IMG/VR virus record: IMGVR_UViG_3300027852_000015
Span: 1 to 44,092 of that record
From: a virus
Length of the DNA: 44,092 bases
Strand: one strand, 5' to 3'
In this document: piece by piece, positions 15,601-44,092 of the stretch
How the letters are laid out: each line of letters starts with the position of its first letter
Position numbering within the stretch: position 1 is the first letter of the stretch
Notes under the pieces: model-generated
Told to the model about the DNA's origin: nothing
What the model saw: only the letters and a program-made list of their open reading frames with translations
Databases searched by the model: none
Translations under genes and position numbers: made by a program

Positions 15601-17199
15601 ATGGCAAAGTCTTCCCAGATAGATGTTAGATTAAATACGCAGGGAATGCATATACCTCTGAGGGAGCAGGAGGTAGGCAGGAGCGTGGTAAACCCTGCCA
15701 CCGATCTAGTTTTTATTCCTGATGTCAACACAGAGTCAGATGTACCAAAAGATCGCGGAGTTATAGGAATAAAGTATGCACACAATGTAATGCCGTCTAC
15801 TTATGGGTGGCGTAGTATCTCTTATCTAGAGAGTGTAGCAGATCCGGCTCTAGGCTCCGGAAGCTTTACGCGTATAGTACCCATAGCCGGGGCTGCAGTT
15901 ACAGGAGGTAGTGTAAGCGCATCTGGGATAAGAAGCTACCTAGGAGTATTCTATAACGGCTCTAACTCCGTATTATACTACCTAAATGCTGGAGGCGCTT
16001 GGGCTCCTGTATCTGGTGTACCTACTTTGAGCTCAGACGCAGTAGTATCTGCTGCTTATATTAATGGCGTATCTTATATATCAATCCCAGGCCACTCTGT
16101 CTACGTAATAGATCTAACTTCTGGCGCTCTAACCGAGCGGCCTCTTACCAGTCTTAATATGTCTGACATAAAAGGTGCAACCTCAGCTTATGGTTACCTT
16201 ATTGTATGGACTGTAAACCGAGTTCTATGGTCGTCCTCTGTAGATGTAGAGGATTTCACTCCATCAGATACCAGCGGGGCAGGTGGCGGCGCTGTACAGG
16301 AAGCCTCTGGGGATATCATATACTGTGGCGAAGGTAGATTTGGGTTCTTTGTTTATACCAGATCTAACATAGTGTCAGCTTTATATACAAGTAATGCCAC
16401 CTTTCCCTTTGAATTTATAGCGCTTGCAGGCAGCGGCGGCATTTATAGCCCTGACCACATAGCCAAAGGTACTGTAGCTGCAGCTTCATATGCGTACTCC
16501 TCCTCTGGTATCCAGAAGATAACTCAGCAAGCTGCTACCACTACGCTACCTCATATCTCAGACTTCTTAGATAACTCTTATTTCGAAGACTTCGATACAG
16601 TTACCGGTGTATTTAGCTCAACCACAGTTGGCAGCACTGGGATGAAGAAAGCTATCCAGACTGTTGCAAGTCGTTTTGTTGTCCTGTCTTACGGAGCTGA
16701 TATCTCAGCACCTTTTACTCACGCACTTGTTATTGACACTCAGCAAGGAAGAATGGGCAAACTAAAGATAGATCACGTAGCTTGTGTAGACTTTTTTGAT
16801 CTGTCTTTAAGTAGCGGCCTAGATAGTAATAGCTCTTTGGCGTTCCTGGGAGCTGAAGGTAGTATAAAAGCCGCTAATTTTGATACGGAGTGCGCTGGCG
16901 TAGATGCCGTAGTGCTTATGGGGGATCTGACTTATGCACACGGTAGTATGGCCCAGTTGCAGGAAGTAGAGGTAGAGAATGTATGTGCGGGAGCTGGCTT
17001 CTCTATGTATACTCTGCCTACCTTAGATGGCAGCACCTTCGAACCAAAGCAGGATGGCTATGTCAGGCAAGAAGATCTAGTTAAACCTCTGCGTAGATTC
17101 CTATTCTCTTCTGTAGCCAAGTCCCATACCTTAGTATTTGTTGGAGGCTTTGAGCTTAACACTGTTGTAGCCAGAATTACTAGAGCCGGGAGATACTAG
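15601..17199 (+). CDS. hypothetical structural protein
   Basis: 532-aa ORF in the late block. Confidence 0.6.
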   Translation: MAKSSQIDVRLNTQGMHIPLREQEVGRSVVNPATDLVFIPDVNTESDVPKDRGVIGIKYAHNVMPSTYGWRSISYLESVADPALGSGSFTRIVPIAGAAVTGGSVSASGIRSYLGVFYNGSNSVLYYLNAGGAWAPVSGVPTLSSDAVVSAAYINGVSYISIPGHSVYVIDLTSGALTERPLTSLNMSDIKGATSAYGYLIVWTVNRVLWSSSVDVEDFTPSDTSGAGGGAVQEASGDIIYCGEGRFGFFVYTRSNIVSALYTSNATFPFEFIALAGSGGIYSPDHIAKGTVAAASYAYSSSGIQKITQQAATTTLPHISDFLDNSYFEDFDTVTGVFSSTTVGSTGMKKAIQTVASRFVVLSYGADISAPFTHALVIDTQQGRMGKLKIDHVACVDFFDLSLSSGLDSNSSLAFLGAEGSIKAANFDTECAGVDAVVLMGDLTYAHGSMAQLQEVEVENVCAGAGFSMYTLPTLDGSTFEPKQDGYVRQEDLVKPLRRFLFSSVAKSHTLVFVGGFELNTVVARITRAGRY

Positions 17200-25499: not shown

Positions 25500-25769
25500 T
25501 TAGCCTAAATCTACCCAATCCTCAGCCAGCATATCCGTCTGCGAAGCCAGCCAGCCTGGTTGCATAGAACCCGCAGCAGTGAACATATCAATATGCGGAT
25601 TGATATTAGTTGGCTCAGTGATACCAGCTTTGCTGTATGGCGTATTAGCCACAGGTCGCACGCTGTCCGAGCCTGGCACCAGTATTAGCCACATGCCTTT
25701 GCCATTCCACCCTTCTCTGGCTACCTTGTTTCCTGCTTTCATTGCTTCTATTGCTTGTCCAAAGTTCAT
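25500..25769 (-). CDS. DUF2829 family protein (Tad2-like candidate anti-Thoeris sponge)
   Basis: MNFGQAIEAMKAGNKVAREGWNGKGMW ... GWLASQTDMLAEDW matches the DUF2829 hallmarks. I prefer the ATG at 25769, which has a GGAGA ribosome-binding site 7 nt upstream, over the track start at 25790. Confidence 0.75.
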   Translation of the reverse strand: MNFGQAIEAMKAGNKVAREGWNGKGMWLILVPGSDSVRPVANTPYSKAGITEPTNINPHIDMFTAAGSMQPGWLASQTDMLAEDWVDLG

Positions 25770-25816
25770 AACATTTCTCCGCACCGTCAAAGGTGGCGCA
25801 TACCTATAAGATTAGG

Positions 25817-26092
25817 TTAAATTAATTCAGAAGGTGAGCTATAAGAGGCTGCGTTCACAGCTCCACTCTCGTAAGCTTCTACTAGGTCGCCTAGAATCGC
25901 AGCTTCCTCCAGCTCATTTATAGCTATATGTTCGGTAAGCTCGGCTCCGCTCTCAAGGCTATAAAGACGTATCATACCTATCTCATACTGATCCCCCAGG
26001 GCAGGAACTACTGTAGCTTTAGCATTTACTGTAAGGCCATTAGATAGGGTGAATTCTATCTCTGCTCTCATATCAGGTTTGTTAGCGCGCAT
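25817..26092 (-). CDS. hypothetical acidic protein
   Basis: 91-aa ORF. Confidence 0.6.
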   Translation of the reverse strand: MRANKPDMRAEIEFTLSNGLTVNAKATVVPALGDQYEIGMIRLYSLESGAELTEHIAINELEEAAILGDLVEAYESGAVNAASYSSPSELI

Positions 26093-26093
26093 T

Positions 26094-39333: not shown

Positions 39334-40404
39334 CTATTTAACTCCATAAGATTGTTTCTGCTCTTCAGTAAGAGACTTAATCCAGATAAGTTTCGCAGAG
39401 ATATAACCCTGTAATGTAGGAAACTTTCTCTTGTCTGGTTCACCTGGATGTAATGGTTTAGAGGGTTTCTTAGGTATTGAGGCAGGTGTCGCAGCTCCAT
39501 TCTCAGATCCATTCTCTGTCTCTCCTAACAGATCCCCAAGTAACGTCTCTGCCTGCGCTGCTTGCTTAATCTCTTTCAATCTAACCGGAGATTTAAACTC
39601 ATCTAACATAGACTTAGCAGTGCGTAACCTTTTAAATAAAGCAAGAGAATGTATTGATCCAATATCTATGCTAGACTCACAGTGCTCTATAAGCTCATCT
39701 ATGTCACCTATAGTTATATCCACAGAAAGTATATCTACTGGAGACTCGAAACTAAACAATTGGGAGATAATAGTTTTCCAGTGGTCTCTCAAAGTAGTAG
39801 TTTTGCCTCCTAAGAGATTCACAGAAGTAGACGGGAAGTTACCTACGTCAGATGCCCACTCTGCCATTAAGCCTGGTAAGAGTTTCTTATTCTTAGCGCC
39901 TGCCATTGCTCCGCGTAAGATACCTAAGATAGTCTCTTCTGCTGGGTCTCTCATATAAGAGGCAGATAGAGAGGCAGAATCCAGATCTAAGTCATCTTTA
40001 TAAATTGAGCAAGAATTTAACTCAGACTCTACCGCATCTAAGTAATGATGTAGATTCTCTAGTTTACAGTTATCTGAGGTAATATGATACTTGGGGAGAG
40101 AATCTATATCTTTATCAGTGTATCTCATTGCAAGAGCTGCTAGTTTCTCTCCATTTTTGCGCCACATTGGGACACAAACTTGCTCTCTTAGTGGCGCATT
40201 CCAGATAACTGGAAACTGTTTAAGTAACGCACACCCAAATAGATGGAGATCCGCAGGAGCCAGTTGCCCTACTGTGAATCTATCTAAGTTTTGCATAATT
40301 AGCGCTTGGATAGGTAACTGGAACATTGGGTGCGGTATCTTACCGTGTCCATTACCTATGTTAGTTTTATACGATACAGCACTATAAGGACAGTATAGTT
40401 TCAT
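39334..40404 (-). CDS. hypothetical protein (candidate replication initiator or helicase loader, from position only)
   Basis: 356-aa ORF directly upstream of the helicase gene. No motif was recognised. Confidence 0.6.
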   Translation of the reverse strand: MKLYCPYSAVSYKTNIGNGHGKIPHPMFQLPIQALIMQNLDRFTVGQLAPADLHLFGCALLKQFPVIWNAPLREQVCVPMWRKNGEKLAALAMRYTDKDIDSLPKYHITSDNCKLENLHHYLDAVESELNSCSIYKDDLDLDSASLSASYMRDPAEETILGILRGAMAGAKNKKLLPGLMAEWASDVGNFPSTSVNLLGGKTTTLRDHWKTIISQLFSFESPVDILSVDITIGDIDELIEHCESSIDIGSIHSLALFKRLRTAKSMLDEFKSPVRLKEIKQAAQAETLLGDLLGETENGSENGAATPASIPKKPSKPLHPGEPDKRKFPTLQGYISAKLIWIKSLTEEQKQSYGVK

Positions 40405-41297: not shown

Positions 41298-41795
41298 TTA
41301 TAAAATCCGCATCATAAATGAGTTAAGTATCTCTTCCTCTTCCTTAGATAGCCCTTCTTTCTTATTAGCTTTAGACGCTACCACTCTTTCTAGTAACTCT
41401 GCGGAAAGCTTCTCTTTAGCTTCTCCCATACTCTCACATCTATTATAGATTTTTGTCGCATCTATGAGTATCTGAGCTGCCTCAGCCTTCTTACTCTCTT
41501 CTGCCTCTTTCGCTGCCCCAGCCGCAGACACTGCATAAGCCGGTGCTGCAATCTCTGCATCTATCTTATAGGCTAACATAGCTAACCTTGAGTGAACTTT
41601 CTCTATAATATAAGAGAAATCATCAGATACTTCTCTCTCTTCTCTCGGTATCTTTAGTAGCTCTTCTGTTATATTCTTTAAGCAACGTATCTCATCTGCA
41701 GAGAATTGCGGCCTATATTTAGCCAAAGGCGCAGACCTTGCCGATCTAGGCTCTAGTTTAAAGTCTTTTAGCTTAGATTCTTTTAAGTCTGACAT
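41298..41795 (-). CDS. hypothetical protein
   Basis: 165-aa helical ORF. Confidence 0.6.
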   Translation of the reverse strand: MSDLKESKLKDFKLEPRSARSAPLAKYRPQFSADEIRCLKNITEELLKIPREEREVSDDFSYIIEKVHSRLAMLAYKIDAEIAAPAYAVSAAGAAKEAEESKKAEAAQILIDATKIYNRCESMGEAKEKLSAELLERVVASKANKKEGLSKEEEEILNSFMMRIL

Positions 41796-42082
41796 AGGAA
41801 TGTATCCTGTTAAGTTTGTAAGATATGGGTTGAGGGGTCAATGTCGCGGCGTCGAAAATGGCACGACAATGCGACATCATACCCCCGACCCCCTCGACCC
41901 GTCAACACCTCGACCTCACCTCCTATCTGCCTTAACCTCTATCTCCCATATACCTCTTACCTCTTATACTCTATATCTCCCTTATTCTATCTTAGATACT
42001 CCTTTCTTTTATGGATTAGCCTCTATTTTTTGACCCCACTAAAATATTAATATATAAATAAAATCTATAACTTAGAAGGGCA

Positions 42083-42116
42083 GAGATAGCTAGAGACTAT
42101 GAGATAGCTAGAGACT
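42083..42116 (+). repeat. 16-bp direct repeat gagatagctagagact x2 (18-bp period), with a partial third copy
   Basis: Copies at 42083-42098 and 42101-42116, followed by cagagact at 42119-42126. Confidence 0.85.
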
Positions 42117-42165
42117 GGCAGAGACTAGGAGAGTGTGGGAGATAGATAGATAAGGGAGTAAGATA

Positions 42166-42202
42166 GGGAGGGGGAAAATGGGAGGGATGAGGGGAGGTGG
42201 GG
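42166..42202 (+). other. G-quadruplex-forming motif (six G3-5 runs with loops of 1-5 nt)
   Basis: GGGaGGGGGaaaatGGGaGGGatgaGGGGaggtGGGG. It lies inside a 94-nt C-free stretch (42126-42219). Confidence 0.7.
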
Positions 42203-42385
42203 ATGATTTTTTGTTTTGTCGTGTTGTCGTGTCGCCGCGTCATTTGCGACAATTTGACAATCAATCTGTGAGTCTCTATTTCTATAACTTTCTATTTCTG
42301 TCAGATACTTACCCTAGAAGGTCGTTGCGAAACTGCTCATTCTAGCTCTGTAACTTAACTAGGTGTAAACTTTTCTTTAGGCATT

Positions 42386-42420
42386 AAAAAACCCGTAACT
42401 GAATTAACAGCTACAGGTTT
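42386..42420 (-). terminator. rho-independent terminator after the 226-aa gene
   Basis: Minus strand: AAACCTGTA-(14-nt loop)-TACGGGTTT followed by TTTTTAATG. One G:U pair in the stem. Confidence 0.7.
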
Positions 42421-42438
42421 AAGAGTCTAAAGAGTCTC

Positions 42439-43119
42439 TTATAAAGAATCAGCCGTAACAGCGGTAGAACTAAGAGCCAGCTCATCAATTAACTTAACAG
42501 TCCAATTAATACTTTCTGATACTTCAGCATACTCAACTAATATCTCCTCATCATCTGATTCAGCGACAGCTTCTAGTAACTGCGTAATTGTCTCACCTAC
42601 AACTTGTAAAGCACCAACATTATTAAGAATCGGTTTCATCCTTAACCCAATAATAGTGCCACCGGCATTAGCTTTTGCAGCTTCCTTGTCTAATAGCTTC
42701 TCTGCGTATTTAGCGTAGAATTTGCCAGCGGCTTCGAGAGTCTTATTAGTTACTGCTCTAGTTCTTGTGCCGGTTGATGCCAGGTGGGCTGCCAGTTTCT
42801 CTACTGTAATATCTGATACTTCCGGCTTATATTCCCAGTCTCCCGCTTTAGCTGCAATCAGCTTCTTGCCATATTGCTCTAGTGCTTCATTAACTACCGC
42901 GACTAACTCTGCTGACGCTTCCTGGCTTACTTCCTTATAAGAAACAAATGACCATTTCACAGTATCTCGTTTCTTACCAAAATGTGGCGATGCCTTATCA
43001 GTTACCGCCTTAAAATGAGATACTACTTTCACCTGCTCAACGGTGTTAGCTGTGTTAGCTGTGTTAGCTGTGTTAGCTGTATTAGTTTCGTTTAACTCTA
43101 CTGAATTTAAAGCTTCCAT
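42439..43119 (-). CDS. early protein of unknown function, VTADSL-tail family (paralogue of 36740..37348) with an N-terminal (NTA)n repeat
   Basis: 226 aa. The C-terminal half aligns loosely with the 202-aa protein and ends ...AVTADSL. A terminator follows the gene. Confidence 0.65.
   Translation of the reverse strand: MEALNSVELNETNTANTANTANTANTVEQVKVVSHFKAVTDKASPHFGKKRDTVKWSFVSYKEVSQEASAELVAVVNEALEQYGKKLIAAKAGDWEYKPEVSDITVEKLAAHLASTGTRTRAVTNKTLEAAGKFYAKYAEKLLDKEAAKANAGGTIIGLRMKPILNNVGALQVVGETITQLLEAVAESDDEEILVEYAEVSESINWTVKLIDELALSSTAVTADSL
43043..43087. repeat. 9-bp tandem array gtgttagct x4 plus one degenerate unit
   Basis: Units at 43043, 43052, 43061 and 43070 are identical, and the unit at 43079 is degenerate. 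On the minus strand they encode NTANTANTANTANT. Confidence 0.9.
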
Positions 43120-43203: not shown

Positions 43204-43443
43204 TTACAACTCCAGCCCTCCCGCTTTCGCTATCATCCCACCATTAGAGTTAAAGTGAGTTTCAGAGACAATATCTAGCCTATTTAGCCTAGTCTCAAAC
43301 CTTACACGCCACTTACTATTAGTCTGTGCTTGCCACTCCGTTTGTGTAGCTTCTACCATGGCCGCCTCTTCCCTGGCCGCCTCTTCCCTCATCTTGTCTA
43401 TTACAGCCTGTAATCTAGCCTCTTGCCTATCAAACATGCTCAT
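43204..43443 (-). CDS. hypothetical protein, first early gene
   Basis: 79-aa ORF 29 nt downstream of the predicted P2 start site. GGAAGG ribosome-binding site. Confidence 0.6.
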   Translation of the reverse strand: MSMFDRQEARLQAVIDKMREEAAREEAAMVEATQTEWQAQTNSKWRVRFETRLNRLDIVSETHFNSNGGMIAKAGGLEL

Positions 43444-43905: not shown

Positions 43906-44092
43906 ATGAGCCGGGCCAAAACTAGAACAGAAGAGAGAGCGCTGGAGTTATTAGGCCAAGGTCTCAGTACCGGCGTAGTTGCGTCCGCGTTAGGGGTAAC
44001 AGACTCGGCTATATCTCAGTTATTAGCGGACGAGAATTTTGCCTCAGATGTACAGAAACTTAGATTTGATAGTTTACAGAAATCGACACAGC
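43906..44092 (+). CDS. terS: small terminase-like DNA-binding protein, 5' part (continues at nt 128 after circular closure)
   Basis: ATG at 43906 is in frame with the overlap. The N-terminus MSRAKTRTEERALELLGQGLSTGVVASALGVTDSAISQLL looks like a helix-turn-helix. It is the first gene of the plus-strand block, immediately before terL. Confidence 0.55.
   Translation, partial: MSRAKTRTEERALELLGQGLSTGVVASALGVTDSAISQLLADENFASDVQKLRFDSLQKSTQ
43966..44092. repeat. terminal overlap, copy B (identical to 1-127)
   Basis: Exact duplicate of nt 1-127. It lies inside the terS reading frame. Confidence 0.95.

Follow-up and report, generated by a model that had tools for sequence, protein, structure and literature searches.

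The sequence analyzed here, referred to as the window, is the whole 44,092-nt stretch of IMG/VR record IMGVR_UViG_3300027852_000015, and our subject is an imperfect dyad of ~420 bp that occupies a non-coding gap (positions 41796–42438) among its early genes and is a candidate origin of replication. Positions 1–127 of the window are repeated exactly at 43966–44092, and the window, with this 127-bp terminal overlap, is therefore the circularly assembled, complete genome of a phage, of 43,965 bp; contig L001, from another sample, spans the junction of the circle (L-numbers designate loci or contigs of relatives compared with the window). Both L001 and L002 correspond to the same phage as the window and bring no comparative information. 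The structural genes are on the plus strand (~0–25.5 kb), and the replication and early genes on the minus strand (26–44 kb); the replication genes code for a family-A DNA polymerase (PolA), a DUF3987 primase-helicase, a Dda-like helicase, a PD-(D/E)XK nuclease and a Sak4-like annealing protein. The polymerase is 28–32% identical to those of the nearest cultured relatives, which are Aeromonas phage P5, EBPR podovirus 3, Polaromonas phage Tiera and the Pseudomonas 119X/PaP2 group.

The gap is bounded by a gene for a 226-aa protein (42439–43119, minus strand) and by another for a 165-aa protein (41298–41795, minus strand; ATG at 41795). As proposed in a preliminary description of this DNA, it is the largest non-coding stretch of the genome and has minus-strand genes at both sides: the competing gap, at 25500–26093, holds a 91-aa open reading frame (ORF) starting with ATG, and the divergent region is reduced to ~460 bp after counting a 210-aa TerS gene across the window ends. 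This gene, in the position of the small terminase, begins at 43906 and runs over the ends of the window, so that the 129-aa ORF at 184–573 is a truncated reading of it. The element is placed in a slot between an intrinsic terminator and a promoter, adjacent to the replication module, and the genes at either side of it are mostly co-directional with replication forks that would depart from it. In the orientation of the flanking genes, the order of its parts is terminator, spacer, box cluster, an arm (C-rich and then T/A/C-rich) ending in iterons, core, a purine arm ending in G-runs and the promoter, an inverted box cluster and the leader, as follows:

42383–42420, minus strand: intrinsic terminator of the 226-aa gene (13-bp stem, 6-nt loop, U6; RNA fold −21.4 kcal/mol, z = −5.25).
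42260–42382, no strand assigned: spacer with AAGTTAYAG boxes (42282–42290 and 42348–42356, on the minus strand) and short tandem repeats.
42216–42259, no strand assigned: outer box cluster on the side of the upstream gene (TTGTCG twice, TGTCGC, GCGACAA, TTGACA), 86–89% identical in L014/L015.
42117–42215, plus strand: distal and middle parts of the purine-rich arm, which is a pyrimidine arm in gene orientation, with the 94-nt C-free run and the G-runs at 42166–42202; 84–85% identity to L014/L015, with indels.
42081–42116, no strand assigned: iteron-like direct repeats, two copies of GAGATAGCTAGAGACT with 18-bp spacing, and a third, degenerate copy that reaches 42132; 97% identical in L014/L015.
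42020–42080, no strand assigned: AT-rich core, a putative DNA unwinding element and the global stability minimum; 93–98% identical in L014/L015.
41916–42019, minus strand: second arm, pyrimidine-rich on the plus strand and thus a purine arm in gene orientation, including the 65-nt G-free run; ~85% identity to L014/L015.
41876–41915, minus strand: G-run block (two copies of GGTCGAGG) and sigma70-type promoter of the 165-aa operon (−35 TTGACG, 41905–41900; −10 TATGAT, 41881–41876); 92–98% identical in L014/L015.
41837–41875, no strand assigned: outer box cluster on the side of the downstream gene (TGTCGC, CGACAA, GCGACA, GTCAA), just downstream of the −10; 92% identical in L014/L015.
41796–41836, minus strand: 5′ leader of the 165-aa gene, with its ribosome-binding region, as read from the sequence.

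On the plus strand of the dyad proper (41837–42259), an AT core separates a pyrimidine arm from a purine arm. The fraction of pyrimidines (Y) is 0.72–0.76 in the left arm and 0.12–0.26 in the right arm (74–88% purine, R), and the core at 42025–42074 has 16% GC. Counts of composition bear out the polarity described previously for both arms, as well as a C-free run at 42126–42219, and extend to 41994 a G-free run given as 41930–41984; these are the longest such runs in the genome, with 94 nt (runner-up, 37 nt) and 65 nt, respectively. Likewise, the Y-to-R switch at ~42037 is the strongest in the genome, with a score of 0.49 (6.8 standard deviations, sd) and 0.27 for the next best. The left arm and the reverse complement of the right arm are identical at 140 of 180 positions in a gapped alignment, with z = 4.1–4.7 with respect to shuffles preserving local composition, so that the dyad, although imperfect, is real, with composition explaining much of it. 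On the purine strand of the second arm (41916–42019), the Shine-Dalgarno (SD)-like motifs GGAG/GAGG/AGGA occur 9.1 times per 100 nt vs. 1.2 genome-wide.

The short motifs previously described are also present in the sequence. The perfect 10-bp palindrome ATATTAATAT is at 42044–42053, with GTCAA at 41837 and TTGAC at 42254, and the only two copies in the genome of the 16-bp repeat GAGATAGCTAGAGACT are at 42083 and 42101. The clustering of CGAC/GTCG motifs at both ends is substantiated by the TGTCG[CT] boxes, for which 7 of the 24 copies in the genome are in the two end clusters (0.44 expected). The core contains CCCTTCTAAGTTATAG, an AT tract and TTTTAGTGGGGTCAAAAAATAGAGG on the minus strand and, on the plus strand, a promoter-like TTGACC (42030)-N17-TATAAA (42053), TAAAAT (42040) and the palindrome. 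The proposed G-quadruplex (G4) holds only in part: there is a canonical motif (at least four runs of three or more G, with loops of 1–7 nt) at 42166–42202, which is the only G4 motif on the plus strand of the genome, although its position and strand are not conserved in relatives. We thus discarded it as a conserved feature, since it is absent from L014, L015, L003 and L004 and lies on the opposite arm in L007, L010 and L025.

Loci from relatives were collected with homologs of the 356-aa protein (eight, with 40–51% identity), with a profile of the 165-aa family (twelve proteins) and with a profile of the upstream protein family. Besides the window, we found at least eight full instances of the element, all metagenomic (L003, L004, L007, L010, L014, L015, L024, and L025) and partial instances in L016–L019. 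The proposed check for conservation found the same dyad architecture kept in the syntenic gap of nine loci, including the window, from four divergent lineages in which similarity outside of the core is lost. The flanking proteins form two conserved families, with 25–37% identity, and so the gap is strictly syntenic. In gene orientation, every full instance has the same order of parts: terminator, boxes, a Y arm with direct repeats of 14–21 bp, core with the motif TTTTAGTGGGGTYAAA, R arm, G-runs and promoter, and inverted boxes. The motif TTTTAGTGGGGTYAAA of the AT core is kept in all lineages, and the Y-to-R switch ranks first within its locus in all six loci scanned. Reverse complementarity of the arms exceeds that expected from local composition in five lineages (z = 4.3–6.4), and arms compared with the partner from their own clade gave 81.8, vs. 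50.4 ± 15.2 with arms from other clades.

Sequence variation is not evenly distributed along the element. The iterons, core and promoter block are 92–98% identical to those of L014/L015, vs. 80–86% for the flanking genes, and the middle parts of the arms are ~85% identical, with indels of 20, 17, and 16 nt. These indels indicate that the plus-strand ORFs at 41800–42033 and 41841–42050 are not genes, in agreement with their earlier dismissal as artifacts. A third ORF, of 32 codons and starting with GTG, is found on the minus strand at 41810–41908 after a perfect 9-nt Shine-Dalgarno sequence (AGGAGGTGA), inside the purine arm and overlapping the promoter; its counterpart in L014 has 29 codons and a weaker Shine-Dalgarno, and no equivalent was found in more distant lineages, so it is probably fortuitous.

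The outer boxes change with the lineage (TGTCGC; TGACG/GTCA; CCGACA; ATGGTTTTATGG; GTGGCA/TTCCAC), each with 3–7 copies that are mostly in opposite orientation on the two flanks, and those from the window are essentially limited to the element. Similarly, each lineage has its own direct repeats of 14–21 bp, located 44–102 bp from the core (−44 to −102). Another type of box, AAGTTAYAG / CTGTAA(C/G)TTACAG (a TGTAA-N-TTACA palindrome), is found in the window at 42065–42073, 42282–42290, 42348–42356, and 41807–41816; three of the six AAGTTA[CT]AG copies in the genome are inside the gap. Unlike the outer boxes, boxes of these forms recur several times in and around the element in all lineages, with related TGTAA-N-TTACA palindromes in the gaps of L003, L007, L024, and L025; in both the window clade and L024, one box adjoins the AT core. 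They could be bound by a conserved factor of the phage or the host.

Contigs L016–L019 and L026–L029 very often stop within the gap, at differing positions, a pattern suggesting that short-read assembly fails in the arms because of their low complexity or their variation between strains. A common physical end was considered as an explanation for these breaks and rejected, because L017–L019 stop at different positions.

Searches beyond these loci were negative. A DNA similarity search of 50,697 phage records and scans of IMG/VR with single proteins gave no match, and a DNA pattern scan of IMG/VR retrieved only two chance matches, in coding DNA. Scanning 185,579 genomes by protein profile and core motif yielded either nothing or 24 chance matches without arm polarity. 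There were no tRNA genes in a tRNA search, and no Rfam match at the gathering threshold, with permissive settings producing chance-level matches only at the terminator. Overall, the element is a real, conserved and previously undescribed non-coding DNA, with parts such as those seen in known origins and with unusual 150-bp arms of opposite polarity.

The core is the global minimum of nearest-neighbor duplex stability of the genome at 40, 60, and 100 bp (−37.7, the mean being −53.1 and the sd 3.8). The minimum falls on the core also in L003, L004, L010, and L024, with a tie in L007, and hence the window and its relatives contain a putative AT-rich unwinding element beside repeats. For phage 119X, the stability minima at 60 and 100 bp are inside the syntenic early gap, and the least stable site in the genome of Aeromonas phage P5 (~5 sd) is in the gap following the first two early genes. 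This feature is shared by 119X and P5, and polarized arms occur only in the metagenomic clade, so that an easily melted site here is older than the arms. The least stable duplex of P5 is a TA-rich tract, in a gap (L021; 32860–33155, 295 bp) that also comprises a terminator and a TTGACA promoter-like site; this gap is possibly a simpler counterpart of the element, without polarized arms.

The outer TTGAC boxes had been read as outward-facing −35 elements, and this did not hold: the sole strong promoter match is TTGACG-N18-TATGAT on the minus strand (41905→41876), with 10 of 12 matches, which is the top match to the position weight matrix in the window, L014, L015, and L003. A −10, often extended, occurs at the same place in all lineages, and the 165-aa operon thus has a predicted sigma70-type promoter, conserved in relatives, whose 18-bp spacing in the window is within the 16–18 bp of such promoters. 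At the other end of the gap, an intrinsic terminator of the 226-aa gene is found in the window and five relatives, with matching hairpins and U-runs following the upstream gene in L003, L004, L007, L010, and 119X. The sequence GGGGTCGAGGGG (41892–41915, minus strand), which precedes by ~20 bp the −10 of this promoter of the 165-aa operon, occurs also in L007, L010, L024, and L025 and is conserved across clades that are otherwise little alike there. In the L007 clade it takes the place of the −35, with a −10 of the extended type, TGGTATGAT or TGGTATAAT; it may represent an activator site.

A promoter-like match, antisense to the flanking genes, is found in the core of every lineage (TTGACC-17-TATAAA in the window clade and TTGTTA-17-TAAAAT in the L007 clade). 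Its hexamers are invariant within each clade, whereas the 17-nt spacer varies in sequence and is constant in length. Because of this pattern, the antisense site would fit the transcriptional activation of an origin and, equally, the synthesis of an antisense RNA.

From its architecture and conservation, we tentatively consider a bidirectional origin of replication of the phage as the most likely of the explanations for the element, an assignment to which we give somewhat less than an even chance of being right. The origin proposed previously finds support in the unstable core, the iterons, the inverted boxes, the synteny and the conservation, and lacks it in that there is neither a recognizable initiator-like protein nor a DnaA box. 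In its favor, genome-unique 16-bp repeats adjoin the core, with the repeats from other lineages at the same relative place, and an outer box cluster overlaps the promoter of the operon leading to the 356-aa protein, the Dda-like helicase, PolA and the DUF3987 primase-helicase. Under this model, a putative phage protein would bind the box arrays, the iterons or both, and would stress or loop the intervening 400 bp, leading to the opening of the core. Because of the polarity of the arms, strands made outward from the core, whether from primase primers or from RNA started at the core promoter-like site, would be copied from a pyrimidine template, and the outward product would be rich in purines and, on one arm, devoid of C. 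Hybrids of purine RNA with pyrimidine DNA are unusually stable, and these would favor leading-strand priming, by the family-A polymerase, in both directions. Through the box cluster that overlies the promoter, the occupancy of the origin would also be coupled to the expression of the downstream operon.

Several observations weigh against an origin. The 165-, 226-, and 356-aa families have no match in Pfam, PHROG or PDB, with no initiator recognized nearby, and AlphaFold models of the 356- and 165-aa families match no known fold with Foldseek. The single copy in the genome of the DnaA box, TTWTNCACA, is at 16932, outside of the gap. Iteron arrays usually contain at least 3–4 copies of 17–22 bp, roughly in helical phase, to which the 2–3 copies here, on one side only and with an 18-bp spacing that is out of helical phase, are an uncertain fit: in the window, two exact 16-bp copies and a degenerate one are 18 and 10 nt apart, and in the relatives two copies of 14–21 bp are separated by 14–46 nt. 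Additionally, the skew profile tracks the direction of transcription and does not single out the element, and the promoter-like site of the core is predicted only in the antisense direction, leaving a symmetric, transcription-primed version unsupported. Lastly, a region that is AT-rich, repeat-rich and bound by proteins also fits a regulatory or a packaging site.

The first of the alternatives, which we see as rather unlikely, is that the core contains a host-type promoter driving from the right arm a plus-strand antisense, non-coding RNA, purine-rich and largely C-free, whose 5′ part consists of repeated GAGAUAGCUAGAGACU units; this RNA would have a regulatory role or be a sponge for proteins, and the remainder of the element would be regulatory DNA. 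The promoter-like matches occupy the same place and orientation in every lineage and have, as described above, hexamers fixed within each clade and a variable spacer of constant length; conservation is highest in the promoter and in the ~60 nt with which the putative RNA would begin (the iterons), and GGA and SD-like motifs are enriched 5–8 times. However, the −10 from the window clade, TATAAA, does not have the key final T, the assignment of −35 and −10 is not homologous between clades, and −10-like hexamers arise readily in AT-rich DNA. There is also no conserved terminator, since the U-run of the window clade is not preceded by a hairpin and is missing in L003 and L007, no Rfam match was obtained, and the second arm, equally purine-polarized and promoterless, is left unexplained.

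It is doubtful, although conceivable, that the element represents a new type of origin in which strand polarity itself is the mechanism, with all outward RNA or primer being polypurine made from a polypyrimidine template and C-free on one arm. Such RNA would have few Rho-loading sites and would form hyperstable hybrids, as do the polypurine-tract primers of retroviruses. The family-A polymerase would extend them in both directions, the box arrays of each lineage would merely gate access, and a classical initiator would be unnecessary.

The element could instead control the transition from early to middle transcription, with a phage regulator that, bound to both box clusters at a distance of 380–420 bp, would form a DNA loop and thereby activate the 165-aa operon promoter or repress it, and with the AT core and polarized arms serving as a flexible or curved loop or as a platform for a nucleoid protein; we find this unlikely. 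One box cluster is indeed over and just downstream of the well-predicted promoter in all lineages, the other being an inverted copy without a −10, the boxes vary by lineage as operators do, and the promoter block is 92–98% conserved. Nevertheless, this explanation does not account for the most conserved and least stable part being in the middle of the loop, nor for the iterons and the extreme strand polarity; besides, the boxes are at no other promoter of the genome and no DNA-binding fold was found in the adjacent proteins.

Even less plausible is a packaging or terminus region, where the core would be cut by the terminase (as a cos or pac site, or as the boundary of a terminal repeat), the boxes would be sites for the small terminase and the arms would be the ends of the virion DNA. 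The deposited linear records of 119X, PaP2 and PaMx33/35/41/43/46 have the same point of the syntenic gap as both their beginning and their end, which in 119X (L020; record ends at positions 1–40 and 43336–43365) is 25 nt from GGGGGTTAAAAAA, a sequence shared with the core from the window and unique in the 119X genome. The circular assemblies of 20Aug470 and FBPa48 read across this point, with ~12 nt variable at the junction, and it may correspond to physical termini or to an unclonable spot. Contigs from several relatives also break inside the gap, and the arrays of repeats around a central site resemble those of short repeats surrounding the cut site in the T7 concatemer junction and the SPP1 pac site. 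Conversely, the later records may simply copy the start of PaP2, the contig breaks are at differing positions and look like assembly failures, and at least nine independent contigs are continuous through the core. The element is also ~1.7 kb from the terminase genes, with early genes intervening, and the small terminase of PaMx41 is annotated as Sf6-like, suggesting headful packaging without fixed ends. The only literature that we found on termini or origins of 119X/PaP2-like phages was the announcement of Shea, a PaP2-like phage described only as “terminally redundant” (PMC13348215), which likewise counts against a packaging site.

Finally, the pairing of both arms in a long structured RNA, as had also been suggested, or in a hairpin of single-stranded DNA is most improbable: although there is a long single-strand fold (−70 kcal/mol as DNA, z = −6 vs. 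global shuffles) and 146 consensus pairs were predicted in three relatives, global shuffles erase the composition of the arms and controls with local composition give z ~4, the covariation term from RNAalifold, +3.03, amounts to no support, with about as many broken as compensated pairs, mismatches between arms show no G-U bias on either strand (50 vs. 58) and are in their majority transversions (167), arm lengths shift by unmatched indels, and the region lies between a terminator, upstream, and a promoter that is inside the 3′ arm.

The neighboring genes have some features of their own. The 356-aa gene (39334–40404, minus strand) is always just upstream of that for the Dda-like helicase; the residues C5, H20, H25, H54, W68, C242, and H252 are invariant in its family, the model of the protein has a pLDDT of 68.6, and we detected no homolog of known function or fold. 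The N-terminus of the 226-aa protein (43030–43075) contains a tandem ANT/NTA tripeptide repeat, NETNTANTANTANTANT, that is one unit (9 nt) shorter in L001, a contig otherwise 99.8% identical.

To our knowledge, no replication origin has been described for the whole podovirus-like group with PolA, a DUF3987 primase-helicase and a Dda-like helicase, including the cultured Pseudomonas 119X/PaP2 group. A delimited, conserved candidate, with a core motif, iterons, lineage-specific boxes and an adjacent promoter, makes the question of their origin directly testable. If the candidate were an origin, it would constitute a compact, portable module with built-in specificity determinants and, if the polarity of the arms were functional, a new design principle for bidirectional initiation.

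The element resembles several known systems, each in part. Like the telomere-resolution site telRL in linear-plasmid phages of the N15 type, it is a phage dyad of large size, and unintegrated episomes can be maintained by relatives of the 119X group (PMC13348215); we nevertheless rejected a telomere-resolution site because the central palindrome is of only 10 bp and is lost in L014/L015, and no protelomerase-like protein was found. With the terminal repeat of T7 (SRL/SRR) and the pacL-pacC-pacR region of SPP1 it has in common several hundred bp of non-coding, strand-asymmetric arrays of short repeats about a central site, followed by the first early promoter, although its arms are inverted instead of direct and no terminal repeat is detectable in the 119X record. 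The origins oriS/oriL of herpes simplex virus 1 and those of SV40 and papillomavirus also have, as the element would, an AT-rich center between inverted sites for the initiator, a disposition that suits the head-to-head loading of two helicases; however, these viruses are eukaryotic, the element is ~3–10 times larger, no UL9-, LTag- or E1-like protein was recognized and the DUF3987 protein has no identified DNA-binding domain.

In origins primed by transcription or R-loops, such as the T7 primary origin, T4 oriF/oriG, ColE1 and the mitochondrial OH/CSBII, a promoter-like site adjoins an AT-rich unwinding region, as it does here; likewise, the phage has a family-A DNA polymerase and the predicted RNA is G-rich and purine-rich, of the kind that forms persistent hybrids. 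Unlike them, the phage has no RNA polymerase of its own, the promoter is predicted and in one direction only, and the G4 is not conserved. The lambdoid and iteron-plasmid origins (ori-lambda, P1, pSC101, F), in turn, have no counterpart to the ~150-bp symmetric arms of opposite polarity or to the inverted box arrays 200 bp out at each side; the element also differs from them in having 2–3 repeats at 18-bp spacing and no DnaA boxes, and in being neither in nor beside a recognizable initiator gene. It shares with these origins, nonetheless, direct repeats (16–19 bp) beside the least stable AT-rich stretch, a purine/pyrimidine strand asymmetry next to the melting region, and repeat-related sites over a nearby promoter, comparable to those involved in the autoregulation of Rep.

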